From positions 672,001 to 736,000 of the forward strand of contig CAWELD010000010.1 in NCBI GenBank assembly GCA_963809895.1: a DNA stretch of 64,000 bases, given 5' to 3'. Positions 1,927 to 63,535 of the stretch are shown piece after piece. The position numbers and the translations under genes are program-made. Under the pieces are notes generated by a model. That model was not told where the DNA came from and did no database searches. It worked only from the letters and a program-made list of their open reading frames with translations. Each line of letters starts with the position of its first letter. Position 1 is the first letter of the stretch. This DNA is from an uncultured Gemmatimonadales bacterium. GTDB taxonomy: Bacteria; Gemmatimonadota; Gemmatimonadetes; Longimicrobiales; Gaopeijiaceae.

Positions 1927-3153
1927 GTGGAGCGGATGCGGCAGATCAGGCGATTCCGGGGGGTCGGACCGGTGCGTGGGCCCGGGTGGAGCCTGATCGC
2001 CGCGCTCCTGCTCGCGGCCTGCCAGGGTGACGCGAGCCCTGGACACGCCGGTCAGCCCATCGTTCTGTCGGCGGTCGACGTCCACGTGGTGGCCACGTCC
2101 GATGCGCTGGCTCGCATCGTGGACGTTCAGCCTGCCGGTGACGGACGCGTGTGGGTGCTCAACTCCACCGAGCCCTTCTTCGTGGCCGTGGGAGCGGACG
2201 GACACGTGGAGCGCGCCTTCGGAAGGGAAGGAGGAGGGCCGGAGGAGTTCGGTGGACCGGTGGAACTGGCGCGCGGCCCCGCGGGCGAGGTCTGGACCTA
2301 CGACGTCCCCCGCAATGCGCTTCGTCGAATCTCCGACGAACGGCCACGCGACCTACGGTTGCCCTCCGACTCTCTTCCGCCCGGGAAGCTCGTCTCTTTT
2401 CAGGACGCCGGGATGCGGCCGGCTCCTCCCTGGATCCAGAGCCGGGGCACGGGCTTCCTCGTCGGACGTAAGAGACCATCCGCCCCTCCGGCCGGCGGGC
2501 TGGGCATCTGGCGCGCGGATATCGTATGGCTCGGTCTCGACGCGCCAGCAGTGTCGCTGGAGCCGTCCACGCCGGTAGCTGACCTCCTGGGCGATCCGAC
2601 CCAACGCTACCCCGGCGCCACGTTGTTCCTGCCCTATCCGATCTGGACCTCGTGTGGAGACGGGTCGTTGGGCATGTATGATCCCCTCGCGAACACGCTC
2701 CGACGCCTCGCACCGGACGGAGGCGAAGAGCAGCCCATAGCCCTTCCCGAAGAGCGCAGGGAGCCGGTAACGTTCGATCGCTTCTTCGGGATGGTGTATC
2801 GGCAACTCAAAGAGCAGGTGCCGAGCTCGCAGCTTCCCGACAGCGCGCACACGCGGAGCATCCTCCAGGAGCAGTTCCGCCGATCCGACGGCACCCTCGC
2901 CGACGTGTTTCCCGAGTACGCCGATCTCCGCTGCACCGACGGCGGCACGTTGTGGCTTCAGCCGTTCGACGTCGCTGGCGGGCGGTTCGGGAGGGGTTCC
3001 GAGTGGATCCGGTTCGACGCGGACGGTTCACGCACCACCATCGTCCTTCCCGACGCGTTCACCGTCCATCGTATCGAAGACGATCGGCTTTGGGGTGCGG
3101 TGGTTGACTCGCTTGGGGTGCCTGCCGTCGCCTGGGTACGGGTGGAAGGATGA
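1927..3153 (+). CDS. 6-bladed beta-propeller-like lipoprotein
   Basis: Lipobox LLAAC, GREGGGPEEF motif, C-terminal DSLGVPAVAW. Confidence 0.8.
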   Translation: MERMRQIRRFRGVGPVRGPGWSLIAALLLAACQGDASPGHAGQPIVLSAVDVHVVATSDALARIVDVQPAGDGRVWVLNSTEPFFVAVGADGHVERAFGREGGGPEEFGGPVELARGPAGEVWTYDVPRNALRRISDERPRDLRLPSDSLPPGKLVSFQDAGMRPAPPWIQSRGTGFLVGRKRPSAPPAGGLGIWRADIVWLGLDAPAVSLEPSTPVADLLGDPTQRYPGATLFLPYPIWTSCGDGSLGMYDPLANTLRRLAPDGGEEQPIALPEERREPVTFDRFFGMVYRQLKEQVPSSQLPDSAHTRSILQEQFRRSDGTLADVFPEYADLRCTDGGTLWLQPFDVAGGRFGRGSEWIRFDADGSRTTIVLPDAFTVHRIEDDRLWGAVVDSLGVPAVAWVRVEG

Positions 3154-3209
3154 GCGCGTCGCGGCCTGGCAGCAAACGAGCAGAGGTCGGCATGTTGCTC
3201 CATGCTTGA
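3150..3209 (+). other. 19-aa mini-ORF (MSASRPGSKRAEVGMLLHA) linking two genes
   Basis: ATGA overlap with stop at 3153; its TGA (3207-3209) overlaps ATG at 3202. Confidence 0.4.
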
Positions 3210-3344
3210 ACCGACTGCCGAAGCCTTGAGAGCCTTGGAGCTCACCAACCGCGACAGCCTTGCCCTGGTCATCGTCGATGTTCAGGAAGCCGTCGTCGCC
3301 GCCGGGCCGTTCGAAGTGGAGCGCGTGCTACGGGGAGATGAAGC
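3202..3344 (+). pseudogene. Isochorismatase/cysteine hydrolase N-terminal remnant
   Basis: ALVIVDVQ matches the family's first strand motif; the rest of the domain is absent and the frame runs out of register into the next gene. Confidence 0.5.
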
Positions 3345-3962
3345 ATGGGACTGTATTCCAGGTATCTGCTCCCCCGGATCATCCATTTCACCTGCAGCGC
3401 GAACTCAGCGATGCGGCAGCGGCAGAAGTTGGTGCCGTTGGCAGAGGGGAGGGTCCTGGAGGTCGGGATCGGCTCGGGCCTGAATCTGCCGTTCTACGAT
3501 CCCGAGCGGGTCACGGAGGTGACGGGTCTGGATCCATCGTCCGAGATCACCGACCTGGCTTGGGAAGCGGCGGAGCGAGTTCCCTTCGATGTCGAGTTCG
3601 TGTCGGTGGGAGCGGAGGAGATCCCGTTCGGTCGTGACCGCTTCGATACCGTTCTCCTGACGTACACCCTCTGCTCCATCGCCGATTCGGCGCCGGCGCT
3701 GGGAGCGATGGCTCGGGTGCTGAGGCCCGGTGGCCGGCTCCTCTTCTGTGAGCACGGGGTCGCGCCGGATCCCGGCGTGCGCCGCTGGCAGAATCGAGTC
3801 AATCCGGTCTGGCGGCGCTTCAGTGGCGGTTGCCAGCTTAACCGGGACATTCCGACGATCATCCGTGAGGGTGGCTTCGAGATTACGGGAATGGAGACCA
3901 TGTACATTCCAGGGTGGCGGCCGGCCAGCTACAACTACTGGGGGAGCGCCGAGGCTCGGTGA
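3345..3962 (+). CDS. Class I SAM-dependent methyltransferase
   Basis: VLEVGIGSG motif I, FDTV, RVLRPGG. Confidence 0.92.
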   Translation: MGLYSRYLLPRIIHFTCSANSAMRQRQKLVPLAEGRVLEVGIGSGLNLPFYDPERVTEVTGLDPSSEITDLAWEAAERVPFDVEFVSVGAEEIPFGRDRFDTVLLTYTLCSIADSAPALGAMARVLRPGGRLLFCEHGVAPDPGVRRWQNRVNPVWRRFSGGCQLNRDIPTIIREGGFEITGMETMYIPGWRPASYNYWGSAEAR

Positions 3963-3966
3963 CCCC

Positions 3967-4566
3967 ATGTACCCGCGGGAGATCATGCACGCACGGCGTC
4001 TTCTGCCGCTAATGTTACCGGGGCTCATCGCGATGGGCGCTGCTGGCCTTGGCGTCGCGTGCGGTCCGGAGCCGATTCCGATCCCTGATTCGGAGCCCTT
4101 TGGGGAACTCGCTTCCCAGGTCCATTTCGGGATGATGGTCGCGGACCTGAGAGAGATCCGGCCCAACGTCTACATCGCGAAGGATGGGACCTACGTTGAG
4201 GAGTTCATGACCCACGATCTGGCGTACCTGTTCTCGCCCAAGGCAGAGGACCGCCCGCCTCCCCCCACTGCCCGACTTCTGGCAGTCGAGAGTCACAGAG
4301 AGTACTGGGATACCCTGCGTCTCTGGCCGAGAGTGGAGTCACCTGGTCGCTGCTTCCTTAGCAGACTTCCCGTCGGACTCCGCGGTGCGCGGACCTCGGC
4401 GATTGCCCGGGTCGCCTCTGACGCGGGCGCAGTCTTCTCGGGTCCACTGACGCGCCCGGTGACCGCGGAGATCCACACCGCGAGTTACGACGGCGGAGCT
4501 TTTCGATTCGTTGCCTCGTTTCCCAGAGTCAGAATCAAGTGCAGGAAGGGTCCTGGAGAGAAATAG
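3967..4566 (+). CDS. Hypothetical lipoprotein (3' half may contain indels)
   Basis: Hydrophobic stretch ending LGVAC within ORF 3730..4566. Confidence 0.5.
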   Translation: MYPREIMHARRLLPLMLPGLIAMGAAGLGVACGPEPIPIPDSEPFGELASQVHFGMMVADLREIRPNVYIAKDGTYVEEFMTHDLAYLFSPKAEDRPPPPTARLLAVESHREYWDTLRLWPRVESPGRCFLSRLPVGLRGARTSAIARVASDAGAVFSGPLTRPVTAEIHTASYDGGAFRFVASFPRVRIKCRKGPGEK

Positions 4567-4569
4567 CTC

Positions 4570-5340
4570 CAGTGGCGCTGCGCGGAGTGTACGGGGCGCA
4601 CGCACCGGTGACTCGAGGGTGGCTTGAATCTCGTGATCGGCCGCAAGGTCGAGGCCCAGGTGAGTTCGTCTCGCCTGTCGCCGCCGCTGTTCTCGCCGAC
4701 GGCGCCTGGCGGTGCCTGACGTGCTCCTCCAGCGGATGTATTTCTTCGACGAGGAGGGGGAATTTCTCCGGAGTAGGTCCCGCTCCGGTCTTTCCGTCGA
4801 TGGCCTGGCGTCGTTGTCCGACGGAGACCCGTTTCGGTGAGTCGTCGCTCGACACCACGCTGGCCGCGGTGACGGGAGGCGTCCTGCTCACGATTCCATG
4901 ACGAGCAACGTCGCTCGCTTCGTGGTACCTGAGCTCGGACCGGGTCTGGAGTGGCACGCTTGCGCAAGGCTTCTACCGACCGTCCAGTGGACGCTCCGGC
5001 CAGGGCTCAAGGATGCTGAACAGTGAGGAGTGGCTCCGCAGCCCGATGATCGCGTCCAACGTCGCGGGATTGGGCGACGGGTCTTTCGCGGTGGGATTCC
5101 GGGAATGGCCCGACTCGGTTCAGGCGGACACTGGTAAGTCGGTACTCGTTGGGTCTTCGTGCGGCCTGGTCTTCCGCCGATGGGGTCTCTGACAAGACCG
5201 ATTTTCGTCCGACGTCGTGCGACATAGCTCCATGTACTCGACCCACCAACGAGTCAATGGAGAGGTGGAGGTGTCGTGGGCCCGGTTCTGGCGTCCAGGC
5301 GTTGAGGAGATCTGGACCCCTGGCCCCGCCGCGCCTGACG
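4570..5340 (+). pseudogene. Beta-propeller paralog, multiply frameshifted
   Basis: GRGPGEFVSP in ORF 4539..4901 and PDVLLQRMYFFDEEGEFLRS in another frame; ends uncertain. Confidence 0.55.
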
Positions 5341-5789: not shown

Positions 5790-5808
5790 AAGGCGAGCGC
5801 CAAGCGTC

Positions 5809-11617: not shown

Positions 11618-11831
11618 GGTGCCTCGGGGTAGACGCGGGATGGCGGTTCGAGGATGAGTACGACGGATACCCCTGCAAGTGACAGACCAACCTCGGCCGC
11701 CGCCTGGCCGGCGGAGCGGGCGATCCTGACTCGGGCTGGCGCGCGGGGGCTGCCCGGGCGCATCTTGTCGCGTAGCAAAAGCGCCATCCCTCGCGCCTCG
11801 TTGGAGGCCACCCCCCCGGGAGGTTCCACTC

Positions 11832-13115: not shown

Positions 13116-13188
13116 TCCGCTCGCACGCGCATCGACCGCAGCGCGCGCGGAGGTCGGCGGTGGCCAGCCGTGCAGCCGGAGGAGAGAC

Positions 13189-13321
13189 CGAGTCAAACTA
13201 TACCACTGGAGCGGGGCTTTCGAACGGTTCGTCGACAAGACTCGCTGAGCGAGTTGAACTCGTCTAATCGAGGTTGGCGCCGGACACCCGTTGTCGACTT
13301 TGACTCGCTCAGCGAGTCGAA
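13189..13321. repeat. Two palindromic operator-like direct repeats plus one half-site
   Basis: ACTCGCT-G-AGCGAGT (13240-13254), GACTCGCT-C-AGCGAGTC (13302-13318), each preceded by GTCGAC; half-site CGAGTCAAA (13189-13197). Confidence 0.7.
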
Positions 13322-13523
13322 TCGGCAAATCGTCGCTGAAAGGGGCTCCAATGGAACCGGAGCGACATCCGCCTCCCGTTGCGGGTGGCGTCTCGTCCGG
13401 TGCTGCCCCCTCCTGGCATCGGCCACATGGCGCTCACCTTGCGGAGCGTGCTGCTCACGCCGATGGTGGTTCTCCACGGCTGCGGCACTTTGAAAGACCT
13501 GCATCTCGTGATGGAGAAGGACG

Positions 13524-14771
13524 ATGTCACGTCGCCCTCGCAGGAACCAAAGCCCCCTTCAGCACACGGGGATCGTCGCCGTCCTGACGGTTCTGGCTGT
13601 CGTTGGATGCGAGTCAGATACCCGCCTGGGCGACGCCGGGCCCGTCACCCTGGCCGCCGCGGACGTGCACGTGCTGGGCACGTCGACGGCCATCGCCGAG
13701 GTGCGAGATCTCGCCGCGCTGCCGGATGGCTCGACCTGGGTGCTCAACTCGGTGGCGCCCTTCTTCGTCGGCTTCGATGGGGAAGGGGAGCTCATCGATG
13801 CCTACGGGTCGGCGGGCGGTGGTCCCGAGGAGTTCCGCATGCCGGCGGGATTCCTGGAGGGCAACCTCGATGGCCAGGCGTGGGTCTTCGACTTCCTCCG
13901 GCACGCCTTCATCCGGATTTCGGAGCCCGGTGGCGAGCGGACCGAGATCGACCTCCCGCGACAGGAGATACCGGCAGGCACGGTCCGTGGCGGGATGAGT
14001 CTGTTGAGCAACACCGTGCGGACGGCGCGCCTGGGAGACGAGATTGTCATCCCGTGGAGCACCGGGACCATGAGCGAGGGCGTCGCTGCATACCATCTTT
14101 CGCTCATGAAGGCCCACCTCGCGGCTCTGGATCCCGGCACGGGCTCGGTGCGGCAGATCGTCTCGCTCGGCGACGCGCTCGAGGACCCGTCCGACGACTT
14201 CACGGCCCTCGACGGGGGCTTCCCGCTCTGGTACCGGTTGTGGGGGGTCTGCGGCGACAGGGTCCGCGTGTACGACCGCGTTCGAAATCAGTTGCGGGGC
14301 TTCACGGCCTCCGGCGATGAGGTGGATGCCGTCGAACTACCTCCGCCGCCGTTTACCGGAGTGACCCCGCACCAGTTCGCGCTGGCGGTCTTCCCGCTGC
14401 GGCAGGCCGAGGTCACGGGCGCTGTCGGAGAGCGGATGTCCGAAGCGGACAGCGTGCGCCTCCTCAACCGGATGGCGCAGGGCTTTACGGCGAGCCCCAG
14501 CGAGCTCGCCGCCTACCTGCCTCTGTACGTGGACTTCAGATGTTCGAGCGACGGAACCATGTGGCTGCAGCCGCTGGACCCGGACATCGGGGCCCTGAAG
14601 GGCGCGCGTACATGGCTGCGGCTGACGCCCGACGGCGACCTGCGCCGGGTTCAGTTCCCGGAGCGCTTCGACCCCATGCGCTTCAGCCCGGACCGGATCT
14701 GGGGGATCCAGCGCGACGAGCTGGACGTGGCGTCGGTGGCGTGGATCGACCTGTCACAGGATCTCCCGTGA
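13524..14771 (+). CDS. 6-bladed beta-propeller-like lipoprotein (close paralog of 1927..3153)
   Basis: Lipobox VVGC, GSAGGGPEEF, RDELDVASVAW. Confidence 0.82.
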   Translation: MSRRPRRNQSPLQHTGIVAVLTVLAVVGCESDTRLGDAGPVTLAAADVHVLGTSTAIAEVRDLAALPDGSTWVLNSVAPFFVGFDGEGELIDAYGSAGGGPEEFRMPAGFLEGNLDGQAWVFDFLRHAFIRISEPGGERTEIDLPRQEIPAGTVRGGMSLLSNTVRTARLGDEIVIPWSTGTMSEGVAAYHLSLMKAHLAALDPGTGSVRQIVSLGDALEDPSDDFTALDGGFPLWYRLWGVCGDRVRVYDRVRNQLRGFTASGDEVDAVELPPPPFTGVTPHQFALAVFPLRQAEVTGAVGERMSEADSVRLLNRMAQGFTASPSELAAYLPLYVDFRCSSDGTMWLQPLDPDIGALKGARTWLRLTPDGDLRRVQFPERFDPMRFSPDRIWGIQRDELDVASVAWIDLSQDLP

Positions 14772-14824
14772 TGCCCTCAGTGGTCGCGTACGCAGTGCGC
14801 AGCGGAGGTGCCCATGGGTGGTGA
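14768..14824 (+). other. 18-aa mini-ORF linking two genes
   Basis: GTGA overlap with stop at 14771; carries GGAGG RBS and overlaps ATG 14814 by 11 nt. Confidence 0.45.
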
Positions 14825-15221
14825 TGCAGTGCCTCGTCCTGGACGGCTCGAGGCCGTCCACCCCGTCCTCATGTGTCGTGACGTCAGCCGCACCATGGAG
14901 TTCTTCCAGCGGCTCGGGTTCAGGGTCCGGTTCATCGACGACTCCGGGGACCCGCGCTACGCCGGGGTCTCGCGCGACGCCGTGGAGCTTCATCTCCAAT
15001 GGCACGACGACAGCCAGTGGGACCACGAGGGCGACCTGCCCTGCTACCGATTCCTGGTGCGGGACATCGATGCGGTGTTTTCCGAATTCGAAAGCGAGGG
15101 GATCGCTCCGGGCGCGCCGAAGGGCCCATGGTGTAGGCCTGCCGACACCCCCTGGGGCACCCGCGAATTCCACCTTCACGACCCCGACGGCAACGTCCTG
15201 CAGTTCTACCAGTCGTCATGA
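14814..15221 (+). CDS. VOC (glyoxalase/bleomycin resistance) family protein
   Basis: FFQRLGF, DIDAVF, TPWGTREFHLHDPDGNVLQF. Confidence 0.9.
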   Translation: MGGDAVPRPGRLEAVHPVLMCRDVSRTMEFFQRLGFRVRFIDDSGDPRYAGVSRDAVELHLQWHDDSQWDHEGDLPCYRFLVRDIDAVFSEFESEGIAPGAPKGPWCRPADTPWGTREFHLHDPDGNVLQFYQSS

Positions 15222-15259
15222 TCGTCACTGCCGTGGCCCTCGTTCGGAAGCCGACGTGA
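15218..15259 (+). other. 13-aa mini-ORF (MIVTAVALVRKPT) coupled at both ends
   Basis: ATGA overlap with stop at 15221 and GTGA overlap with start at 15256. Confidence 0.5.
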
Positions 15260-16448: not shown

Positions 16449-19129
16449 GACCCGGGCCCGGACGAGCACTCCGCTGGCTCGCCTCCGTTCTGATCCGGGG
16501 TCCGGGCTCGCGCTTCGTGCTCGGGGACCTGGACGAGGCGATGCAGCGGGATCTCGAGCGGGGCGTGCCGTTGGGGCAGGCTCGGGCACGATACCTGGGA
16601 AACACGCTGGCTTCGGCCTCGAGCCTTGCTTGGGCCCGCGTGTGGCGGCGAGTAGGGTCCCTGCGCGTACCCGGCCTGTCCTGGGTGGACGTGAAGCTCG
16701 GGTGGCGCGTGCTCTGGAAGCATCCGGTGCTCTCGGGAGTCTCGGTCCTGTCGCTGGCCGTGGGGATTCCTCTCGGCCTGGTTCCGGGGCGCGTCATCGA
16801 TGCCCTGGAGGCGCCGCTCCCGGTGGATCACGGCGAGCGCGTCGTGGGCCTCCGCTACTGGAACGTGGAACGATCCGGGCCGGCCCCTGCCACCCTGTAC
16901 GATCTGTCGGTGTGGCGTGAGGCGCTGACCTCGTTCGAAGATCTCGGGGCCGTCCGCGAGGTCCAGGTGAATCTGGACACGGGCACGGACGGCGGACGCC
17001 TGGTCCAGGGCGCACAGGTGACGGCGTCGACCTTCCGAGTCCTGCGGGCGCGACCCTTGTTCGGCCGGATGCTCGACGCGGGAGACGAGCGCCCTGGTGC
17101 CCCGCCCGTGGTGGTGCTGGGCTACGGAATCTGGCGCGGGCGCCTGGGGGCGGATCCTGGGGCGATCGGCGCCACCGTCCGGATCGCGGGCGTGCCCCAC
17201 ACGGTGGTGGGCGTGATGCCCGAGGGATTCCGTTTTCCCCAGCATCAGCAGATGTGGGTGCCTCTGCCGCACGCGTCGGTGGGTGCGGAGGCCCGAGGCC
17301 CGGATGTCCTCGTCTTCGGCCGCCTCGCGGACGACGCGACCCTGGCTGCGGTCCGGGAAGAGTCCGCGGTCGTGGGCCATAGGCTGGCCGCCGATCATCC
17401 GGAGCAGTATCCCCGGCTGCGTGCCGAAGTCGTCTCGTTCGCCGCGGCTGCGCTCGGTTGGCCAGCGGGCGGGCTGCGCGAGGTGCCCGCGGTCCGGCTG
17501 ATTCAGGGGCTCGCCCTGATCCTGCTGCTGGTGGCCTGCGTGAACGTGGGCCTGCTCGTTCTGGCGCGTGCCGCGACCCGGTCCGCGGAGCTCGCGGTGC
17601 GCACGGCGCTGGGAGCGAGTCGGATGCGCATCGTCTCGCAGGTATTCACCGAGGGCCTGGTGCTGGCCGTGCTGGCTGCAGGGCTCGGCGTGGTGCTCGT
17701 GTTCGGGACGATCGGCCGGCTGATGGACGCGGTGTGGGCGTCGGGGCTCCCGAGAATCCCGTATTGGGTGGAGTTGGGGTTCAGCGCGAAGACCGTCCTG
17801 CAGGCGCTCATCCTGGCCGGTATCAGCGCGGCGGCGGCTTCCGTGCTGCCGGCGCTGCGGGTCACCCGCGAACGCAGCGCCGGAGACATTCGCCGTGCAG
17901 GCGGCCCGGCGTGGTCCGGCGTCCGATTCGGGCTCGGAGCCACGGCCTTGATCGTGGCTGACGTGGCCATGGCCGTGGCAGTGACGGGGGCCTCGATCGG
18001 CGCCGGCTATCGGTCCCGCACGGCCCTGTCGAGGCAGGGCGTCGGGAGCTTTCCTGCCGACGAGTACCTCATGGTGGAGGTGCGCCTTCCCGAGAACGGA
18101 CTCTTTACGACCGAGAGAGACACGCCACAGGCCCTCGCCAGCCGCCGCCGGTCGCTGGAGGAACGACTCGTCGCACGCCTACAGGCGGAGCCCGGGGTTC
18201 GAGGCGTGGCCATCGCCAGCGCCCTACCCGGCATGGACCATTCGCGACGGTACGTCGAGGTTGACGGGCGCCTCGACGCCATCGACCGAGCCTCGGTCCG
18301 GCTCGGCTTCTTCCGTGTCTTCGATCGCCCGGTGGTCGCGGGCCGCGATTTTCGACCCGACGACCTCGAGGGCGATCGGCAGGTCGTGATCGTGAACCGC
18401 GCCTTCCAGAAGGAGTTGATGGGCGGGCGGAATCCCCTGGGCCAGACGCTGCGCTACCCCAGCGACGGCGAGTCGGCCCCGTCGTACGAGATCGTGGGTG
18501 TCGCGCCGGATCTCGGCGCGGATCCGCTGAATCCCAGCGGGGGCGCGGCGGTGTATCACGTGGTGGGCGCCGGTGAGCTCAATGCCCTCCTCATGGCCAT
18601 CCACCTGGGTCCCGACCCCACATCCTTCACGCCCCGCATCCGTGCGCTGGTTGCCGAGACCGACCCAGCGGCCATTCTGGGCGGGCCAGTGCGACTCGAT
18701 CGCGTGAGCGTCGAGGCGGCGGGCGTCCTCATTGCCGCTACGACGGGGCTCGCAGTCCTGGCGGGCATCCTCCTGGCCCTTGCAGCTTCAGGCGTCTACG
18801 CCATCATGTCGCACACGGTGTCCCGTCGGACGCGCGAGATCGGCATCCGCGCGGCGCTGGGAGCGAGACCAGCCAGGATCGCCGTGACCATCGGTCGCCG
18901 GGCGGCACTGCAACTGGGTGCCGGCGCGCTGCTCGGCTCACCGTTGGCCGGTTGGCTGTACTTTCTCGTACAGGACGATCCAGGGACCGCGCGGGCGGCC
19001 ATCGCCACCGCGGCGCTCGGTCCGGGCCTGGCTGTGACGCTGCTGGTGGGCACGGCGGCGTGCACTCCCCCTCTGCTCCGGGTCTTGCGCTGCACCCCGA
19101 CCGAGGCCATTCGGGGGGGTAGGAGATGA
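16445..19129 (+). CDS. ABC transporter permease, duplicated MacB/FtsX (ADOP-type)
   Basis: VVGVMPEGF, VACVNV.LL.LAR, ELAVRTALGA, RTREIGIRAALGA; GTGA-coupled to padR. Confidence 0.92.
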   Translation: MRPGPGRALRWLASVLIRGPGSRFVLGDLDEAMQRDLERGVPLGQARARYLGNTLASASSLAWARVWRRVGSLRVPGLSWVDVKLGWRVLWKHPVLSGVSVLSLAVGIPLGLVPGRVIDALEAPLPVDHGERVVGLRYWNVERSGPAPATLYDLSVWREALTSFEDLGAVREVQVNLDTGTDGGRLVQGAQVTASTFRVLRARPLFGRMLDAGDERPGAPPVVVLGYGIWRGRLGADPGAIGATVRIAGVPHTVVGVMPEGFRFPQHQQMWVPLPHASVGAEARGPDVLVFGRLADDATLAAVREESAVVGHRLAADHPEQYPRLRAEVVSFAAAALGWPAGGLREVPAVRLIQGLALILLLVACVNVGLLVLARAATRSAELAVRTALGASRMRIVSQVFTEGLVLAVLAAGLGVVLVFGTIGRLMDAVWASGLPRIPYWVELGFSAKTVLQALILAGISAAAASVLPALRVTRERSAGDIRRAGGPAWSGVRFGLGATALIVADVAMAVAVTGASIGAGYRSRTALSRQGVGSFPADEYLMVEVRLPENGLFTTERDTPQALASRRRSLEERLVARLQAEPGVRGVAIASALPGMDHSRRYVEVDGRLDAIDRASVRLGFFRVFDRPVVAGRDFRPDDLEGDRQVVIVNRAFQKELMGGRNPLGQTLRYPSDGESAPSYEIVGVAPDLGADPLNPSGGAAVYHVVGAGELNALLMAIHLGPDPTSFTPRIRALVAETDPAAILGGPVRLDRVSVEAAGVLIAATTGLAVLAGILLALAASGVYAIMSHTVSRRTREIGIRAALGARPARIAVTIGRRAALQLGAGALLGSPLAGWLYFLVQDDPGTARAAIATAALGPGLAVTLLVGTAACTPPLLRVLRCTPTEAIRGGRR

Positions 19130-19185
19130 TCCCCGACTCGACCCCTTCCTCTCACACCCGGCTGGAATCGAATGTCGGATCCTGA
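19126..19185 (+). other. 19-aa mini-ORF linking two genes
   Basis: ATGA overlap with stop at 19129; 14-nt overlap with ATG 19172. Confidence 0.4.
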
Positions 19186-26874: not shown

Positions 26875-27303
26875 ATGCGTCACCTGATCCCTCTGATGAT
26901 CCTGCTGGCCCTGGCCGTGCCAAGTCGGGTGTCGGCGCAGGAGCATCGTCCGCGTCCGAATCTCGGCTCCGCATGCTTCGATCTTGCACTGAGCGCGGAG
27001 GGCGGCGACGCGATGCACGAGGCCGTCGAATTCATCTTCGCCCCGTCGGTGTCGCCGACCCAGGCCGAGAACCAGGTTTGGAAGCTGCACGGGCCGATCC
27101 GTGCGGACCGGGCGGTGCTCTGGTGGCCGCTCCCCCTGGATTCGGTCGGCGCCCTTCTCCTCCGGGACGGGGGTGTGCTGTGGGAGCTGAGGCTCGATGC
27201 ACGCCCGGCCGTCATGAGGGGACAAGCGCGACAGGTCTTCCCAGAGGCCAGGGAGTCGGCCCCGCTGCGGGCCGACGCGACACCGATCTCCTGTCCTCGG
27301 TGA
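26875..27303 (+). CDS. Secreted hypothetical protein
   Basis: AAGGAGG RBS; signal peptide VSA-Q; Cys near both ends. Confidence 0.7.
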   Translation: MRHLIPLMILLALAVPSRVSAQEHRPRPNLGSACFDLALSAEGGDAMHEAVEFIFAPSVSPTQAENQVWKLHGPIRADRAVLWWPLPLDSVGALLLRDGGVLWELRLDARPAVMRGQARQVFPEARESAPLRADATPISCPR

Positions 27304-27326
27304 CGATTCGCGGAGGGTCGACGTGA
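27300..27326 (+). other. 8-aa mini-ORF (MTIRGGST) coupled at both ends
   Basis: GTGA overlap with stop at 27303 and GTGA overlap with start at 27323. Confidence 0.45.
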
Positions 27327-33774: not shown

Positions 33775-34515
33775 ATGACGCAGCGTGCCGTCGACACATC
33801 ACCCATCATTCACGCGCGGCTTGCCGGCCTCGGGTATCTGATCATCATCTTCGCGGGGATCTTCGCGGAGTTCTTCGTCCGCTCGAGCCTGATCGTGCCT
33901 GGCGACGCCACCGCCACGGCTGCCAACCTGATGGCGTCCAACTCGCTGTATCGAGCCGGAATCGCCAGCGAGTTCGTGATGCTCCTCTGCGACGTCTTCG
34001 TCGCGGGGGCGCTCTACGTGGTGTTCCGATCGGTGAACCGGAACCTGGCGCTGCTGGCCGCGTTCTTCCGGCTCGCCCACGCGTCCATCGTCGCCGTCAA
34101 CCTGCTCAACACCTGGGTGCCGCTGCTTCTCGTGGGCGATGCCGGGTATCTCGCCGTCTTCAGCACCGAGCAGCTCCACGCTCTGGCCCTGCTCCTGCTG
34201 GAAGCGCACAGCTACGGATACGTGATCGGTCTGGTGTTCTTCGGTGCCCACTGCGTGTTGCTGGGCTATCTCGTGATCCGATCCGGCTTTCTTCCGAAAG
34301 GGCTCGGCTTCCTGCTGTTGGTCGCCGCGGGGGGCTATCTCGCCGACGGCTTCGGCCGCACGCTGCTCGCCGACTACGCCCGCTACGAAAACGTCTTCTT
34401 GCTGGCGGTGTTCGTGCCGGCGTTCATCGGCGAGCTCTCCTTCTGCCTCTGGATGCTGTTCAAGGGGATCGACGTCCGGCGGTGGCAGCTGCGGTACCAG
34501 AGTGCGCAATCTTGA
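33775..34515 (+). CDS. DUF4386 family membrane protein
   Basis: ARLAGLGYL, LIVPGDATATAANL, IGLVFFG.HC, GELSFCLWML.KG. Confidence 0.88.
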   Translation: MTQRAVDTSPIIHARLAGLGYLIIIFAGIFAEFFVRSSLIVPGDATATAANLMASNSLYRAGIASEFVMLLCDVFVAGALYVVFRSVNRNLALLAAFFRLAHASIVAVNLLNTWVPLLLVGDAGYLAVFSTEQLHALALLLLEAHSYGYVIGLVFFGAHCVLLGYLVIRSGFLPKGLGFLLLVAAGGYLADGFGRTLLADYARYENVFLLAVFVPAFIGELSFCLWMLFKGIDVRRWQLRYQSAQS

Positions 34516-34535
34516 TCTTCGTGTGGAGGTGACAA

Positions 34536-35204: not shown

Positions 35205-35600
35205 ATGGACTTCGACCTCCACCGGAGCGTGGCCGTGCTCGAGCGGCGCCTCTAAACTCTCGAATTTTGCCCCCGCCGCTTCCCGCCCTTCGACCGCTTT
35301 CGCCACCTGGAGGCCAACCAGGGAAAGACGCTGAGTGACCTGCTCGAGCGTTTTGCCCAGCTCCGGACCCGGAATCTCGAGGAACTGGCCGAGCTGGAGA
35401 TCGGACCGGCCGAGCTTCGCCTCACCGGTGTGCATCCAGAGTTCGGAACCGTGACCCTGGAGCAGCTTCTGGCGACCTGGGTGGCCCACGACCTGGGCCA
35501 CATCGCCCAGATCGCCCGCGTGATGGCGAAGCAGTACAAGGAGGCGCTGGGCCCCTGGGAGGCCTATCTGCCGGTGCTGCACCGGGACCGCCGCGGACGA
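35205..35600 (+). pseudogene. DinB-like family protein with internal deletion and in-frame TAA
   Basis: MDFDLHRSVAVLER-RL*TLEFCP-RRFPPFDRF...HPEFGTVTLEQLLATWVAHDLGHIAQI, all in one frame; 3' stop not seen. Confidence 0.75.
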
Positions 35601-44941: not shown

Positions 44942-45151
44942 TCAGACCGTCGTCACATTCTCGGCAGCCGGGCCCTTGGGGCCGTCGACGACATCGAACT
45001 CCACGCTCGCGCCCTCGGCGAGGCTCTTGAAGCCCTCGGCCTGGATGGCGCTGTGGTGGACGAAGCAATCCTTGCTTCCATCCTCAGGCGTGATGAATCC
45101 GAAGCCCTTCTGATCGTTGAACCACTTCACGGTTCCCTTGGTACGCATCAT
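44942..45151 (-). CDS. cspA: Cold-shock protein (CspA family)
   Basis: [43 protein letters not shown]. Confidence 0.96.
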
Positions 45152-52892: not shown

Positions 52893-53019
52893 CACTGCGG
52901 GCCGCATCCTCTCACTCGAGGACGGGCTGCATCCGAGGGAGGGGTGGCGAGCCCGAATCCGGACGCGCATGTTCGAGCCGCAGTAAAATCGCACTGGCTA
53001 CGATTCGCAGGGGACGGCG

Positions 53020-56038: not shown

Positions 56039-57184
56039 ATGTGGTCGAGTGGATCGATCCTGGGGATCACCGTGGTGGTCACGGGCTTGGCGGGATGGTT
56101 GCCGCGTCCTGCCCCGGTGTTCAAGTGCCAAGGGCCGGGTGGCGACCCGCTGGCGGCCATCGACGGCGAGCTCTCGGATCTCGGCATGGAAGCGCTCGCG
56201 GGCGGCGAATTCATCCGGATCGAGGTCGTGTGCTTCGATCCGCGTGACTCGACGTTCAACTCGGACACTGGCCTCGATGTCGTGTCCGCCTGGACACGGA
56301 CCGGGCCATACTCGCAGCTCGAGCCGGCGTTGTCGGCGGTGGTGGAGGCCCAGGACAGGTATCTGCGGGCGCAAGGTCACTACGCCGACAAGTTGGACGC
56401 CCTTGATCTTCCGCCGGTCGCGGGCAGCGTGAGCCTTCGTCTGGAGGCGACTCCCGAGGGCTGGACGGGCACGGCCGGGCTCGCCCGTCTCTTCATGACC
56501 TGCTACGTCTTCGACGGCGCCGCGGCTCCACCCACCGCGGGCCTCACGCCCCGGGTGCCTCAATGCGTTCCCACCCGGGAACCGATGACGGCCCAGCGCC
56601 TTCCGGCGAACCCCGAAGCCGACTTCCGTGCGCTCGAGGAGGCACTGCTCTCGCCGCGTGTGGTGCGCATGGACTTCCACGTCACCGCCACGGGGGCAGC
56701 GGAGATCGAGGTGCGGGGGAGTCTCTCCGTCGACGCTCAGGGCGAGATCGAGCTCACCGCTCAGGGCGAGTTCGGCGGTCAGCCGGTGGACCTGGCCCTC
56801 CAGACCTCGGGAGAGGAATACGAATTCGGGAACGGTCCAGACCGGGTGCGCGAGCCACGACCTCCGGAGCTGCGCCAGGCATTGATGCTCGGGTTGACCC
56901 GCATGGGAATCCTGCACAACCTCGCGCGGCTCACGGGCAACGCGGCGCCGGATCACGCCGACGGGGGTGCGGACGACTGGGTACAGGCCCACGGCTTCGA
57001 CCAGGGCGAAACGCCGGGGTCGGTGGCCTTCGAACTCACTGTCGCCGGACAATCCTCGGGATCAGCAGAGCTCCAGTTCGATGCCCAGGGCCGTCCCGTG
57101 ATCCGCCATCAGACGGTGAACTTCCCGACGGGTGTGATGAATGTGGTCGAGCGGTACGAGAATGTGGTGATCCGGCGTGACTGA
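56039..57184 (+). CDS. Hypothetical exported multi-domain protein with pilin-head-like segment
   Basis: N-terminal hydrophobic segment; AQDRY...YA..L..L...GWTGTA...C...C; distinct C-terminal half. Confidence 0.65.
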   Translation: MWSSGSILGITVVVTGLAGWLPRPAPVFKCQGPGGDPLAAIDGELSDLGMEALAGGEFIRIEVVCFDPRDSTFNSDTGLDVVSAWTRTGPYSQLEPALSAVVEAQDRYLRAQGHYADKLDALDLPPVAGSVSLRLEATPEGWTGTAGLARLFMTCYVFDGAAAPPTAGLTPRVPQCVPTREPMTAQRLPANPEADFRALEEALLSPRVVRMDFHVTATGAAEIEVRGSLSVDAQGEIELTAQGEFGGQPVDLALQTSGEEYEFGNGPDRVREPRPPELRQALMLGLTRMGILHNLARLTGNAAPDHADGGADDWVQAHGFDQGETPGSVAFELTVAGQSSGSAELQFDAQGRPVIRHQTVNFPTGVMNVVERYENVVIRRD

Positions 57185-57635
57185 TGCGGCGCCCGACGCG
57201 GACGGCGTCCTGACTCTCGAATCCCGGAACACGGGCGAGCGGCTCCAGCTGCGGCGTCATGTCACGGTGCCGGCCGGAGGGTCGGTGGCGTTCTCCAGGG
57301 GAAGCGCCCACCGCTGGTGGAACGAGGGTGACGAGACGCTGGTCTTCGAAGGTCGGGCGTCACCGGCCGACGACCTGGACCGATACCTCCAGGCCGTCTT
57401 CGAGGCCTTCAACGCGGGGCCGGCCGATCGGCCTCCGCTCTTCTACATGGCGCACGTGCTGCACCGGCACCGGAAGACGCAGATCGCGTTGGTGGTGCCG
57501 CCGCTCGTCCAGCGACTCCTGTTCCCGTTGGTCATCGGGGTCGGACGGCTCCTGGGCAAGTACCGCGGGACGGATTGGCCGGGGTGCCCGGCACGCTGCG
57601 GCGGAGCGCCTACGCCGAGCACGGACGCCCGGTAG
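57177..57635 (+). CDS. Cupin-domain protein lacking cupin motif 1 (probable internal deletion)
   Basis: Motif 2 G.SV.F.RG.AHRWWN present; no HxH...E motif 1. Confidence 0.68.
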   Translation: MTDAAPDADGVLTLESRNTGERLQLRRHVTVPAGGSVAFSRGSAHRWWNEGDETLVFEGRASPADDLDRYLQAVFEAFNAGPADRPPLFYMAHVLHRHRKTQIALVVPPLVQRLLFPLVIGVGRLLGKYRGTDWPGCPARCGGAPTPSTDAR

Positions 57636-57681: not shown

Positions 57682-59280
57682 TCAGTTGCCGACGCGCTGG
57701 ATGCGCTCGAACTGGGCGATGGCGTTGAGATGCTGGATCAGCGCTCGCAGCTCGGACAGCCGCGACGTGGTCAGCGAGTTCTGGGCCGTCACCACCTCGT
57801 AGTTCGTGGCGGCGCCGACCTCGAAACGCGCCAGCTCCGCCTCGACGTTCTGCTGGGCCGCGTCGCTCGCCCGCTGCGCGGCCTGGTACTGCAGGAGCGT
57901 GTTGTTCACCGAGAGGCCGGCGCTGGTGACCTGCGTCACCACGGTCAGCTCCTGTGCTTTCAGCGACAGTTGCTGCTGGCGGGCCTGCAGCCGCGCCCGC
58001 TCGAGATTGATCTTGTCCGAATTGATCCCGAGCGGATACGAGGCGTTGAGCGTGAGGCCCCACGTCGGCGTGTCGAAGTCGGCGATGGACTGGAGGCCGT
58101 CCAGGTAGCCGCCCCGCTGGACGAGCACCGGATCGCCTCCGAGCTGATCGCGCTCGAAGAGGTTTCCGCCGACTCCCTGCAACGAGTACGACGCCGTCAG
58201 GTTCAGGCTAGGCAGCCGGTTCGACCGGGATACCTCGAGGTTCACGTCGGTGATCTGCTGCTGAGCCTTGATCTGCTGCAGATCGGTACGCTCCCGCAGC
58301 GCGACCTCGATGGCCTGCTGGATGTCCACGGCCTGATCGGCCAGCTCGGGCTGATCCGTGGGGTTGATGGTCTCGGTCAGGAGCGTGTCGTCGGCGCCCG
58401 TGAGCAGGAGTTGTTTGAGAATGAGCTCCTGGTTGCGCCACTGGATCTGGGCGTTGAGCAGGGCCTGCTCGGAGCTGGCCACCTGGGCCTCCGCCTGGAC
58501 GACCTGATACTCGGTGCCGCGGCCGAGCCGCGCACGCACGCGGTTCTGGTCCGCCAGCTCCCGGGCCTGCGCCAGGCTGCGCTGCTGGATCTCGATCTGT
58601 TCGATAGCCGCCCGAAGTCCCCAGTACGCCTCGCGCACCTGGCCCACGACGTTCTCGACCTGCGACCGAACCTGGAGATCGGTGATGTGCGTCTGGATCT
58701 CCTGCGTCTCCAGCGAAGCCCGCTGGTTGTCCATCTTGAACCCGGCCAGCAGGGGCTGGGTGAAGCTCAAGCTCACCGACGACGAGTAGCTGGGATTGCG
58801 CGTCGAGAAGGCGTTGTTGGACTCGGTGCGGCGGTTGTTGAAGTTGGCGTTGAGGCGTGCCCCGTACCACGGAAGCTGCTCGGACAGCGACGAGTTGAAC
58901 GTGTGTTGCTTGGTCGTGGTCCTGCTGCCACCGTCCAGCTGGCTGGTAGATTGATTCACAGAGTTGTTGTAGCCGAACGTGCTGCTCAACGTCGGCGTGA
59001 AGGCGGCGCGGGCCGCCCGCAGGGCGTATTCCTGGATCGCCGGGTTGAGCCTGGCGCTCTGGAGGTTCAGGTTGGCTTCCAGCGCCCGGGAGACGGCGTC
59101 TTCGAGCGTCATGGAGACCATGGTCTGGCCTTCCTCGAGCGGCGGCAGGGCTTCGCCCACGACGTAGGGCTCCAGCCGTTCGATGGGCTTCTTGGCCTCT
59201 TCCTGCGCAGAGGAAGACATGGGGACGGCGAGCGTCGAAAGAACGACAAGCGCGCCGAGTCCTCGCGTGCACCTCGTCAT
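57682..59280 (-). CDS. TolC family outer-membrane efflux protein
   Basis: MTLEDAVSRALEANL, FTQPLL, V.EAYWGL, RLPSLNL, RFEVG..TNYEV; signal SSA-Q. Confidence 0.93.
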   Translation of the reverse strand: MTRCTRGLGALVVLSTLAVPMSSSAQEEAKKPIERLEPYVVGEALPPLEEGQTMVSMTLEDAVSRALEANLNLQSARLNPAIQEYALRAARAAFTPTLSSTFGYNNSVNQSTSQLDGGSRTTTKQHTFNSSLSEQLPWYGARLNANFNNRRTESNNAFSTRNPSYSSSVSLSFTQPLLAGFKMDNQRASLETQEIQTHITDLQVRSQVENVVGQVREAYWGLRAAIEQIEIQQRSLAQARELADQNRVRARLGRGTEYQVVQAEAQVASSEQALLNAQIQWRNQELILKQLLLTGADDTLLTETINPTDQPELADQAVDIQQAIEVALRERTDLQQIKAQQQITDVNLEVSRSNRLPSLNLTASYSLQGVGGNLFERDQLGGDPVLVQRGGYLDGLQSIADFDTPTWGLTLNASYPLGINSDKINLERARLQARQQQLSLKAQELTVVTQVTSAGLSVNNTLLQYQAAQRASDAAQQNVEAELARFEVGAATNYEVVTAQNSLTTSRLSELRALIQHLNAIAQFERIQRVGN

Positions 59281-61836: not shown

Positions 61837-61988
61837 GGGTGTGGGCCTCCTGTGCGCCCGATCGGGGTGGACGCGGACGAGGGTCTCGCAGGGAACCTCG
61901 ACAGAGTAGGCGTGGCGGCGTGCCCCCGACAGCCGCGGCCACGCCGGCCTTCCTTGCGGTGTGCAGCCGTCCGGCGTGATCGTGTGCC

Positions 61989-62537
61989 ATGAACCTCTAT
62001 CCCATGATCATTCGAACGTTGGGCGCGCTGGCGCTGGCGGGGGCCGTCGGGTCTCTGCTGATGCTGGCCGCCACCGCGCTGTCTTCCGGCCGGGCGTGGC
62101 TGCGCGAGAACCTCGAGCCAGGTGGAACGGGCCCGCTCGCGGGTGCCTGGGCCGTGGCGATCCTGGCCATGGCCTCGAGCCTGTACCTGTCCGAGGTGGT
62201 CGGCTTCGTCCCCTGCGAGCTGTGCTGGTTCCAACGCATCGCCATGTATCCGCTGGTGCTGGTTCTGGGCGCCGGCCTCGTGCTCCGCGAGCCGGGCGTG
62301 TGGCGCTTCGCGCTGCCCCTCTCCGTGGTGGGACTCCCGATCTCGATCTACCATGTGATCATCCAGTTGCAGCCGAGTCTGGACATCGTCTCGTGCGAGG
62401 CCAGTGCCCCCTGTACGAGCCGTTACGTCGCCGTCTTCGGGTTCCTGTCGATTCCGGGGATGGCCGGCGCCGCCTTCCTGCTCATCACGGCGTTGCTGCT
62501 GACTGTGGGGGTGGTGCGCGGCAGCGCTGAAGGCTGA
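61989..62537 (+). CDS. Disulfide bond formation protein B (DsbB/BdbC-like)
   Basis: [14 protein letters not shown], second pair [13 protein letters not shown]. Confidence 0.92.
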
Positions 62538-62546
62538 GGAGGTCTC

Positions 62547-62825
62547 GTGGGGGCGCTGATGAGGTTGCCGGCGTTCAGGAACGCCTATCTCGTGCGCGGC
62601 GCGATGGTGTGGGTCGCCCTCCGCATGGGCGCCGCCTTCGTCCGGATCTCCGATCCGAACCTCGCCCAGGAGCTGCTCATCTGCGTCGGCGTGATGCTGG
62701 CCGTGCAACTCGACGCTCGCCGCCGCCACGAGGACGCCTTCCTGGCGAATCTGGGGATCTCTCCCTGGGCCATTGCCGCGTGGAGCGCGCCGGTGGCGAT
62801 CGTGCTCGAGATCCTGGTGCCGTGA
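62547..62825 (+). CDS. Small three-TM protein with ABC coupling-helix-like motif
   Basis: RRRHEDAFLANLGIS between TMs; coupled to the ATPase. Confidence 0.68.
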   Translation: MGALMRLPAFRNAYLVRGAMVWVALRMGAAFVRISDPNLAQELLICVGVMLAVQLDARRRHEDAFLANLGISPWAIAAWSAPVAIVLEILVP

Positions 62826-63535
62826 CGCGCGATGACGTGGTGCTCGAGGTCGACGGCGTGGGCAAGCGGTTCGGACGCCGCGATGTGCTGAAGGCAGCCT
62901 CGTTCCGGGCCCGCGTGGGTGCGATCACGGTCCTCATGGGCAGGAACGGCACCGGCAAGACCACATTGATGAGGGTGGCCGTGGGACGGGTGCGACCCGA
63001 GCGCGGCCGGGTGCTGTACGATGGCCTCTATCGTCCCCGTCCGGCGCTTCATCGCCTCGCCCGCGCGGGGCTCATGTATCTGGACCAGGAATCGGCGTTG
63101 ACTTCACTGTTCAGCGTCCGGGATCATCTGGCCAGCGTTGCGCGCACCTTCGGGTCCGGGGCGCGCATGCAGGAGGTGGTGGACCGCCTTGCTCTGGGCG
63201 AGTTTCTGGGCCGCCGCCCCGGCGACGTCTCGCGTGGAGAGCGGCAACGGGCCGCGCTGGCCCTGTCCATGCTTCGCTCACCGCGCTGTCTCCTGATGGA
63301 CGAGCCGTTCGCGGGGGTCGCTCCTCGAGATCGTCCGCTGGTGGCTCACGGATTGGAATCACTCCGTGAGGCAGGCGCCGCCGTGGTCGTCTCGGGCCAC
63401 GACGTGGAGGACCTGCTCGCCGTCGCCGACGACGTCATCTGGGTCGTGGCAGGGACCACGCACTGGCTCGGCACCCCGGCCGAAGCGGCCGCGGACGAAG
63501 GTTTCCGGCGCGACTACCTCGGATCTCGGGCGTGA
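62822..63535 (+). CDS. ABC transporter ATP-binding protein (LptB-like)
   Basis: GRNGTGKTT, VSRGERQR, LLMDEPFAGV, GHD, C-terminal RRDYLG. Confidence 0.9.
   Translation: MTRDDVVLEVDGVGKRFGRRDVLKAASFRARVGAITVLMGRNGTGKTTLMRVAVGRVRPERGRVLYDGLYRPRPALHRLARAGLMYLDQESALTSLFSVRDHLASVARTFGSGARMQEVVDRLALGEFLGRRPGDVSRGERQRAALALSMLRSPRCLLMDEPFAGVAPRDRPLVAHGLESLREAGAAVVVSGHDVEDLLAVADDVIWVVAGTTHWLGTPAEAAADEGFRRDYLGSRA

Follow-up and report, generated by a model that had tools for sequence, protein, structure and literature searches.

A co-oriented, attC-free gene array that probably forms the distal end of a sedentary chromosomal integron in an uncultured Gemmatimonadales bacterium

The window (the whole stretch of DNA that was analysed, 64 kb) holds 66 well-scoring genes according to the gene caller, 54 of them on the plus strand, together with gene fragments. 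The plus-strand run is broken 12 times by minus-strand genes, and no family of repeats linked to cassettes emerged from a repeat search within it. The main features are as follows.

1927..63535, plus strand: gene array, probable distal attC-free portion of an integron cassette array
1..1422, minus strand: broken gamma-glutamyltransferase-like gene, widespread in the genus and absent from the sibling contig C9
10813..11146, plus strand: pseudogene with both ends present, about 75 aa lost and a frameshift relative to full-length homologues
35205..35600, plus strand: broken DinB-like gene, with a 16-aa N-terminal ORF, a stop and a C-terminal piece
44942..45148, minus strand: cold-shock protein gene, not a recent cassette, since relatives keep it close to the end of the tail
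57177..57635, plus strand: gene with a net in-frame loss of 48 aa relative to its full-length homologue
57682..59220, minus strand: outer-membrane efflux protein gene, a core anchor in the window, found in 18/19 genus relatives
62547..63535, plus strand: small membrane protein and ABC ATPase pair, which also closes off attC-free tails in the relatives G004, G008 and G009

Neighbouring genes often meet in an NTGA start/stop overlap (-4 overlap), which was counted both in a list curated by hand and in a second set taken from automated gene calls. An earlier note on this DNA had reported at least 15 such overlaps. NTGA is indeed present at 16/16 of the overlap positions listed there and at 7/7 mini-ORF positions, and the curated list, with 16 overlaps at 52 co-oriented plus-strand junctions, comprises 15 of these 16 positions plus 28676. 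Three of them are weakened: 15861 opens merely a weak 51-aa ORF, 27986 counts solely if the upstream gene is given a frameshift, and at 7432 contig C9 favours an ATG two codons downstream as the start. The array shows the -4/-1 overlaps between co-oriented genes expected of a translationally coupled operon, at a density that is normal for the genome, without enrichment: 16/52 versus 599/2765 in the curated set (p=0.13), and 11/48 versus 647/3074 with automated calls (p=0.72). For ATGA termination-reinitiation, passages of PMC6728339 give about 15-30% overlapping co-directional pairs in most prokaryotes; this genome, at 21%, lies within the usual range and the window rate is no different. The tail of a second array in the same genome has -4 overlaps at just 7/93 junctions. 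Homologues of 22166 and 27986 in G004 and G009 stand beside different neighbours, with gaps of 64-252 nt, so these overlaps of unrelated genes arose locally.

The window is attC-free, as had been claimed: two pattern scans were negative and the best covariance-model score over the 64 kb was 11.5 bits. A strict canonical attC pattern was set aside, as it overlooked even the intact sites upstream. Although the mostly plus-strand array is real, it is not the stand-alone, attC-independent system proposed earlier, because it prolongs a true integron whose integrase gene lies upstream on the same contig.

G000:C10:600921-601910: intact integrase gene, outside the window, about 70 kb upstream
C10:603421-628253: intact attC sites

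The integrase scores 388 bits against TIGR02249 (cut-off 265) and, when aligned with two other IntI, shows the IntI-specific insertion. Its gene and the cassettes share one direction of transcription, and 1.5 kb separates the gene from the first attC. The covariance model finds 21 attC sites of at least 39 bits within the first 27 kb and a further four of 31-40 bits at 32-43 kb, beyond which scores are at most 17 bits; 13 of the sites served as the training set, which inflates the proximal scores. The sites are directly oriented, with TAAC...GTTA ends and bottom-strand folding (z <= -2.96 for 5/6 tested). Location is chromosomal, on a 1.23-Mb contig with 20 tRNA calls. With no attC inside and intI upstream, the window is not a CALIN (at least two attC, no nearby intI). 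The strength of the attC sites falls with distance from the integrase, down to faint remnants at the start of the window.

3164..3201, plus strand: remnant of an attC of the long subfamily, of which the middle and the right part are left (p=0.003, the floor of the null)
11733..11791, plus strand: probable attC right-arm remnant, hairpin folding lost (z=+1.0)
52938..52993, plus strand: probable attC right-arm remnant of a short subfamily (p=8e-7 per position; p=0.013)
13175..13373, no strand: dispersed palindromic repeat, not attC, with many 69-85% copies genome-wide

The remnant at 3164 is kept in contig C9. The hairpin at 13224-13333, within the dispersed repeat, was once an attC candidate and was discarded. 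Remnant signals at p<0.05 occur in 7/34 gaps on the array strand, one of them being the dispersed repeat, and also in 7/34 on the opposite strand, with combined p values of 2e-4 and 0.12, respectively; position weight matrix (PWM) counts barely exceed chance. As no window gene is followed by an intact attC, and the remnants do not fold, the window genes are at most former cassettes.

Several properties change with distance from the integrase. Gene GC climbs from about 0.62 to 0.69 (rho 0.62, 141 genes) and GC3 rises likewise (rho 0.51, 141 genes), where random 135-kb stretches give a GC3 |rho| of 0.35 at the 95th percentile and 0.64 at most. The median intergenic gap drops from 183 to 5.5 nt along the array. 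Toxin-antitoxin (TA) families are restricted to its proximal part, and none was found among 82 window proteins. In the second array of this genome, attC decay and the rise in GC recur (rho 0.56); the gaps of its tail do not shrink (rho -0.11). In relatives, the attC arrays of G004:C68, G004:C76, G008:C42 and G008:C4 give way to co-oriented tails that are poor in attC, and some of these tails hold homologues of window genes; G107 has two arrays, neither with a long tail. Stretches from G059, G076, G115, G138, G144, G006, G012 and G022 are too short or fragmented to show tails. Those G107 recombinases that lack the IntI insertion are identical at two loci, one of them beside an IntI fragment; they were therefore excluded as support for the second array.

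Homology to the attC-adjacent DNA of relatives places the window 3rd of 79 windows, behind the array itself and the second tail, with matches for 9/66 window genes versus 107/4102 (p=4e-5). The matches of 57177 and 61120 are strong, seven more are weak (four of the nine homologies are paralogous beta-propellers, 26-41%), and 57/66 genes have none. At G004:C68:8690-9292, the full-length homologue of 57177 (45% identity) forms a cassette with an attC on either side. With 84 stretches and 94 kb, this cassette pool is small, and the lack of a match carries little weight; a distant pool (62 stretches, 22/80 loci) gave merely three weak matches. In relatives, the efflux gene usually faces a run of accessory genes, which is also present where no integron was detected. 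The PadR-ABC permease pairs, like the beta-propellers, are represented by paralogues throughout the genome. Since core genes are interleaved, not all window genes entered as cassettes.

The cassette-like cargo, the turnover of genes and the loss of gene middles described earlier are supported. Contig C9 joins C10:667157 straight to window position 1510, and the gene loss seen there took away the start, leaving no relay ORF. The gene at 1..1422 is presumably gamma-glutamyltransferase-like, judging by its motifs; the piece of it that was scanned has no Pfam match. Missing middles hold for 10813, 57177 and 35205, and 51898, the first 30 residues of which match the GGCT family weakly (E=0.4), is at most a candidate. 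Full-length homologues of 10813 occur in 4/400 genomes of the phylum. The C-terminal piece of 35205 is 59% identical to a relative, with homologues in G003, G014, G017 and G008; we take the family to be DinB, and the size of the gap depends on the DinB length thus assumed. Two of these three genes also contain a frameshift or stop. Among 106 conserved genes elsewhere, none has an internal loss as large as these (about 48-75 aa); outside the tails, frameshifts affect 8/106, with 11 events over 36,659 aa. Near-identical contigs of other runs, which are short and cross neither 27986 nor the junction at 35250 with its odd AT-rich filler, do not share the single-base differences at 21769, 21822, 25213 and 25689. 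Single-base frameshifts may be assembly errors.

The earlier note had also seen short ORFs spanning many of the remaining gaps and had taken them to relay ribosomes from gene to gene. Six such mini-ORFs exist (offsets are relative to the adjoining genes).

3150..3209, plus strand: 19 aa, 5' -4 and 3' -8, the next gene being a fragment
14768..14824, plus strand: 18 aa, ending 11 nt within a glyoxalase gene (-11)
15218..15259, plus strand: 13 aa, -4/-4
19126..19185, plus strand: 19 aa, 3' end -14 relative to the next start, across a strain-variable junction
27300..27326, plus strand: 8 aa, -4/-4
34512..34532, plus strand: 6 aa, ending 3 nt ahead of the next start (+3)

"Many gaps" amounts to 6/21 gaps of 15-130 nt, and the chain said to begin at 47660 stops short of 47770 under the chain rule applied. 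The 3' coupling, put forward as the informative half of a bridge, also tells rather little: where the next gene begins with NTGA, it provides the stop itself, so a -4 relay leaves only the gap length modulo 3 and an open frame to be explained. With an acceptance range of -14 to +3, chosen to admit these six cases, 6/9 start-capable gaps are bridged, versus an average of 2.6 under the null (P=0.011) or 2.65 in matched genome gaps (P=0.022); comparison with the genome rate gives P=0.09, and same-length shuffles lead one to expect 4.7 (P=0.21). Bridging at the shuffled level had been named as grounds for dropping the relay idea; the outcome is a modest, post hoc excess (P 0.01-0.09), which the same-length shuffle does not show. 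A first test on automated calls covered only 14 gaps and gave no excess. A frame-jitter null (P=0.005) was set aside: open in-frame cases are under-represented among real gaps, which makes this null too lenient, and the later null corrects for it. Genome-wide, out-of-frame gaps are bridged in 77/197 cases where the stop offers a start and in 103/454 otherwise (p=2.6e-5), a 1.7-fold excess of about 32 gaps; the pooled relatives give 11/32 and 16/92 (p=0.08), and the second tail 3/17. Coupled bridging is a tendency of the whole genome and is not specific to the window.

The proposal that mini-ORFs are shrunken genes found no support: none was matched to a full-length gene, and two of the six have contrary evidence. 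The ORF at 3150 reads through the 3164..3201 attC remnant, and its start codon is missing in C9 (the stop there is CTGA); at 19126, a 98% identical contig agrees from 19130 onward and differs over its first 135 nt. A coding signature is absent from the mini-frames (p=0.41). They are neither repeats nor junction duplications of the MIRU kind: duplication as their source was rejected, with a lag identity of 0.35-0.50 in the six window cases and 0/45 genome cases reaching 0.8. The downstream starts at relay junctions agree with those of relatives, where testable. The relay ORFs amount to no more than a weak side effect.

The window is best read, with a probability of roughly 0.7, as the old distal end of a sedentary chromosomal integron, made of former cassettes with eroded attC. 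This reading builds on the observed integrase, attC decay, gradients, shared gene families and gene turnover. The integrase would insert new cassettes beside itself, displacing older ones outward, which would give the array its direction of time. Over time, attC hairpins would mutate or be deleted, and distal cassettes would no longer be excisable; worn of their attC, once-mobile cassettes would become ordinary chromosomal genes. They would then be sorted like any gene, with TA and backward cassettes being lost, useless genes decaying by deletion and base composition nearing that of the host. Deletion of spacers, the presumed mechanism, would draw the survivors together, often in the genome-typical -4 overlap, while other insertions and core genes became intermixed. 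The mini-ORFs would mostly be junction by-products, in which a stop offers a start by chance and the frame runs through old spacer or leader; selection on junctions may mildly favour them for keeping ribosomes in motion, and the array is presumably expressed.

A less probable alternative is a long-standing hotspot of accessory genes, which has core genes (efflux, cold-shock) as its anchors and merely adjoins an integron. Only the first few kb would then consist of ex-cassettes, and most genes would have come in otherwise, off-target cassette insertion being one of the ways. The efflux gene with its variable accessory flanks in relatives where no IntI was found, the genome-wide paralogues of the permease pairs and beta-propellers, and the 57 genes without a cassette match all suit this alternative. 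However, the GC, GC3 and gap gradients run smoothly from the integrase through the window, the 3164 remnant is conserved in C9, cassette homologues occur at the far end (57177, 61120), and the pool behind the missing matches is small.

The original idea of an attC-independent array, held by translational coupling and losing genes by in-frame shrinkage to relay peptides, appears improbable. It draws on the bridging excess in the window, genome and pooled relatives, and on internal deletions that look real and are unmatched in size elsewhere. Against these stand an acceptance range fitted to the six cases, the shuffle, genome-rate and automated comparisons, the lack of a coding signature, the poorly bridged second tail, a mini-ORF at 3150 that is an attC remnant and is not conserved as an ORF, another at 19126 that is a junction chimera, a gene loss in C9 that left no relay, and a frameshift or stop in two of the three deleted genes. 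Long-read assembly errors behind much of the decay and some of the relays are very improbable: frameshifts in conserved genes, the four single-base differences and the filler at 35250 speak for them, but by our own arithmetic about nine such errors would fall within the opening 130 nt of the -4 genes taken together, which does not suffice for the roughly 32 bridged gaps in excess across the genome. Errors are also unable to create an integrase, attC sites or GC gradients, and the downstream starts at relay junctions match those of relatives where testable. A bolder extension of the preferred reading, the sedentary integron, can be offered tentatively: integrons of this lineage may work like a conveyor belt on which, over a distance of more than 100 kb, cassettes become permanent members of operons, with the deletions of attC sites and dead genes filtered for an unbroken ribosome path. 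A junction would pass if its genes overlap directly by -4 or if a disposable relay ORF, made of spacer or attC remnant, lies between them. If true, the same filter would account for the 1.7-fold genome-wide excess, and position in the tail would be a clock of gene domestication.

Among known systems, the Vibrio cholerae superintegron, as described in passages of PMC11023631, shares the integrase, a long, mostly co-oriented array, related attC and TA cassettes. Here, in contrast, attC sites cover only the first 27-43 kb, followed by at least about 90 kb of attC-free genes and core genes, and TA cassettes are limited to the proximal part. Treponema and other inverted-integrase integrons have intI in the cassette direction, as here, according to parts of PMC4889954 and PMC3607928, whereas the present phylum is another one, Gemmatimonadota. 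Sections of PMC8876359 describe cassettes fused through attC loss (blaGES-1/aacA4, blaOXA-10/aadA1), and parts of bioRxiv 10.1101/2022.09.11.507474 propose cassette domestication by attC deletion; in both, partial or total attC loss yields permanent operon-like pairs, expressed by translational coupling. Those are single pairs in mobile integrons or proposals for isolated cassettes, whereas here dozens of genes follow a distance gradient. Short ORFs are likewise known, with ORF-11 in attI1 and others within attC (passages of PMC8876359 and PMC11511950), and a short ORF or MIRU can pass ribosomes to the next gene (parts of PMC12548453). The likeness is that the 3150 ORF sits in an attC remnant; the window mini-ORFs differ in being mutually unrelated, unconserved where testable and free of junction duplications, and are candidate relays only.

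The locus is a large natural example of the cassette domestication already proposed. What had been proposed, and seen for single pairs, is here ordered along 130 kb, twice in one genome; among the open papers searched, no description of a long attC-erosion gradient was found. Along a single axis, one could time how attC sites decay, composition drifts, TA cassettes are lost and operons form. Tools that recognise cassettes by their attC would overlook much of the gene content derived from integrons. Resistance-like genes are part of it, and the window holds an APH(3') family gene that passes the NCBIfam cut-off and a Vat-like one that falls short of it.

The window lies in the distal, attC-free tail of an integron cassette array that starts about 70 kb upstream on the same contig (C10). 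The earlier note, which had described an attC-free array of cassette-like genes, spotted the right anomaly but missed this cause. The locus can be placed among the sedentary chromosomal integrons, and its window genes are not cassettes now but are probably, for the most part, former ones (probability of about 0.7). The Atlas clusters nearest to a window protein come mostly from Gemmatimonadota, so this is probably the phylum of the host. Within the assembly (5.33 Mb, 69% GC), the window (C10:672001-736000) is atypical, with 54 of 66 genes on the + strand, a gene median of 209 aa, and a coding density of 0.79; the 64 kb before it are more atypical still (GC 0.649, coding 0.56). The array's integrase is the following:

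C10:600921-601910, pointing towards the array, integron integrase (TIGR02249 388 bits, for a cut-off of 265; IntI insertion present)

This orientation is that of the inverted-integrase group, as outlined in PMC4889954. Behind the integrase lie direct repeats of 100-116 nt with ends TAAC to GTTA, and bottom-strand folding turned 5 of 6 into long hairpins (z <= -2.96). With a covariance model trained on 13 of the array's own sites, 21 attC sites scoring at least 39 bits are found within the first 27 kb. Four more, at 32-43 kb, score 31-40 bits, and three weaker matches near 39 kb score 13-17 bits; a match 1 kb short of the window has 12.6 bits, and another, at window positions 3130-3205, has 10.5 bits. 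The score declines with distance (rho -0.68, n = 30 array-strand matches, weaker ones being excluded), the training sites inflating scores at the proximal end. TA families (BrnT, PemK, MazE, PIN, and HigB) occur among 34 proteins scanned, all proximal, and none was found among 82 window proteins.

In the attC family at C10:603421-628253, the spacer that precedes the GTT core is apparently longer than in the canonical pattern, forming a 4-5-nt bulge beside the R box; a strict scan for the canonical pattern missed every site of this region. IS110-family transposase genes sit within attC sites at C10:605411-606780 and 624450-625540, where they replace the left arms. Elsewhere on this contig, 18 tRNA genes are clustered in 3.3 kb (355200-358464).

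Gene GC climbs with distance (rho 0.62) across the 141 genes that lie between the integrase and position 740 kb of C10. GC3 rises from 0.79 to 0.85, approaching the genome mean of 0.88 (rho 0.51), and the median gap separating + strand genes shrinks from 183 to 5.5 nt (rho -0.34, 91 gaps). Strong as it is, the GC3 trend is not unique, since random 135-kb stretches reach |rho| 0.64 (95th percentile, 0.35). A contig of the same bin, C9, links window and array and demonstrates whole-gene turnover: in this sibling (72-90% identical), the counterpart of C10:665977-667157 is joined directly to that of window 1510-7915, without the subtilase gene and the broken minus-strand gene that C10 has at this join. 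Contigs C1, C2, and C9 are small, syntenic copies of main-contig regions (72-96% identical), so the bin contains a second strain or species.

Inside the window, the remnant signal is faint. Total counts in a position-weight scan are near chance, but two array-strand matches, at positions 11764 and 52972, score above nearly every one of 1.39 million control positions. When 34 gaps were aligned locally, p<0.05 was reached by 7 on the array strand (combined 2e-4), of which one is a dispersed repeat, and likewise by 7 on the opposite strand (combined 0.12). The strongest remnant, 3164-3201, is attC-like and kept in C9; on folding, the window remnants no longer form hairpins. A hairpin within 13175-13373 was ruled out as an attC remnant, being a dispersed, palindromic, MITE- or REP-like repeat of about 200 nt, with copies at at least a dozen loci (69-85% identity).

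Other genomes offer further comparisons. In a survey of 41 genomes, including the source assembly, IntI was found in 9 and the C10-type attC family in 12. One contig of G004 (C68) carries attC sites across 11 kb, followed by an attC-free tail with homologues of window genes 22166, 20985, and 27986; G009 has a matching tail (no attC detected there), and the layout is similar at G004:C76, G008:C42, and G008:C4. Neither of the two arrays of G107 has a long tail. A cassette pool of 84 attC-adjacent stretches from relatives contains matches to 9 of the window's 66 genes (genome-wide, 107 of 4102), placing the window 3rd of 79 windows. Two of the matches are strong: that of 57177, to a G004 cassette with an attC site on either side, and that of 61120, to a cassette in G144. 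Not everything in the window is ex-cassette. The efflux gene 57682 is present in 18 of 19 genus relatives. In most cases an accessory-gene run of variable content lies opposite it, frequently including the cold-shock gene along with homologues of 3345, 33775, or 48914, and this layout also occurs in genomes without detected IntI. Old tail and backbone are, therefore, mixed in the window.

A second locus of the source assembly, C3:3211342-3340000, is also a cassette-like array and has at its head an IntI-like tyrosine recombinase without the IntI-specific insertion; its 210 bits fall short of the TIGR02249 cut-off, and its 227 bits pass that of NF040815. Its own family of ~160-nt TAAC...GTTA repeats drops from 98-162 to 13-29 bits and is gone beyond 65 kb. 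The enzyme acting on these repeats would be either this recombinase, despite the missing insertion, or, in trans, the C10 integrase; in the single copy folded, the ends did not pair with each other (z -1.9). GC climbs as in the C10 array (rho 0.56), gaps do not shorten with distance, and 4-nt start/stop overlaps occur in just 7 of 93 junctions. Lone intact attC sites, one per family, lie far from both arrays at C3:653418-653519 and C3:1892759, and are candidates for off-target cassette insertion.

Parts of this scheme have precedents. PMC8876359 and PMC11511950 review how attC loss leaves permanent coupled gene pairs, and how short ORFs within attI or attC can hand ribosomes onward; ribosome delivery by short ORFs is also treated in PMC12548453. 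Cassette domestication via slippage deletion of attC (bioRxiv 10.1101/2022.09.11.507474) and hairpin deletion (PMC8946536) have been proposed, and PMC8618304 already includes Gemmatimonadota among phyla with integrons. No 100-kb attC erosion gradient was found in a literature search of partial coverage.

Pfam confirms the types of cargo genes, namely methyltransferases, GNAT, glyoxalase, APH, hexapeptide acetyltransferase, and beta-propellers. At 51117-52892, within the tail, 340 nt separate a minus-strand gene for a Vat-like acetyltransferase, which scores below the family cut-off, from a gene of the APH(3') family, which passes its own; two further APH-domain genes lie directly upstream of the window. 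Every position listed in the earlier note does read NTGA, but the rate of 4-nt start/stop overlaps is the genome's own: 11 of 48 same-strand pairs versus 647 of 3074 genome-wide by automated calling (p = 0.72), and 16 of 52 hand-curated window junctions versus 599 of 2765 (p = 0.13). All genome-wide counts are limited by the imperfect start calls of the purpose-written hexamer caller (4531 genes). Overlapping pairs make up ~15-30% across prokaryotes, according to Huber et al. (PMC6728339). Some window overlaps arose locally, as homologues of 22166 and 27986 in G004 and G009 have different neighbours and gaps of 64-252 nt.

Genes said to keep both ends without their middle include two that do so, 10813 (~75 aa missing, plus a frameshift, relative to the full-length versions that 4 of 400 genomes carry) and 57177 (48 aa, in frame); 35205 is split by a stop, and 51898 is a candidate. 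Assembly indel noise put frameshifts in 8 of 106 conserved genes elsewhere in the genome. The largest genuine gap in these genes is 15 aa and occurs once (the other case flagged is an artefact of a repeated domain), and four small indels of the window are absent from near-identical contigs of other runs. The large deletions are, therefore, probably real, and the single-base frameshifts suspect.

The model of short ORFs relaying ribosomes across gaps (3150, 14768, 15218, 19126, 27300, and 34512) is only weakly supported. Among 21 window gaps of 15-130 nt, 6 are bridged, all among the 9 whose stop offers a start. Expected numbers are 4.7 from same-length shuffles (P = 0.21), 2.6 when randomising between the two out-of-frame classes (P = 0.011), and 2.65 from length-matched genome gaps (P = 0.022), with P = 0.09 against the plain genome rate; these P values overstate significance, because the originally reported cases were used to set the acceptance range. 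A cleaner internal control is stop type genome-wide: 77 of 197 out-of-frame gaps are bridged after ATGA, GTGA, or TTGA stops versus 103 of 454 after others (p = 2.6e-5), with a like trend in pooled relatives (11/32 versus 16/92, p = 0.08) and no coding signature in the mini-frames. Continuous frames may, therefore, be mildly preferred, yet this is not special to the C10 array (3 of 17 gaps are bridged in the second tail and 0 of 5 in mid-array). Gaps after these three stops, core operons included, also favour the frame ending in a 4-nt overlap (132 versus 65; other stops, 232 versus 222), for which selection, missed small genes, or, in part, assembly errors are candidate explanations.

The view of these mini-ORFs as vestigial genes fails where it can be tested. 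The 3150 frame runs through the attC remnant and its start is absent in C9. Since a contig 98% identical to the window diverges upstream of 19130, the 19126 frame is composite, with a start supplied by the stop of one gene and a body supplied by the leader of the following gene. Of the gene lost in C9, nothing but the last codons remains, with no relay. An origin of the mini-ORFs as junction duplications was rejected by test. A second possible strain-variable gene boundary is 31364, up to which a contig from a public sequencing run (X3) matches the window before differing for 60 nt.
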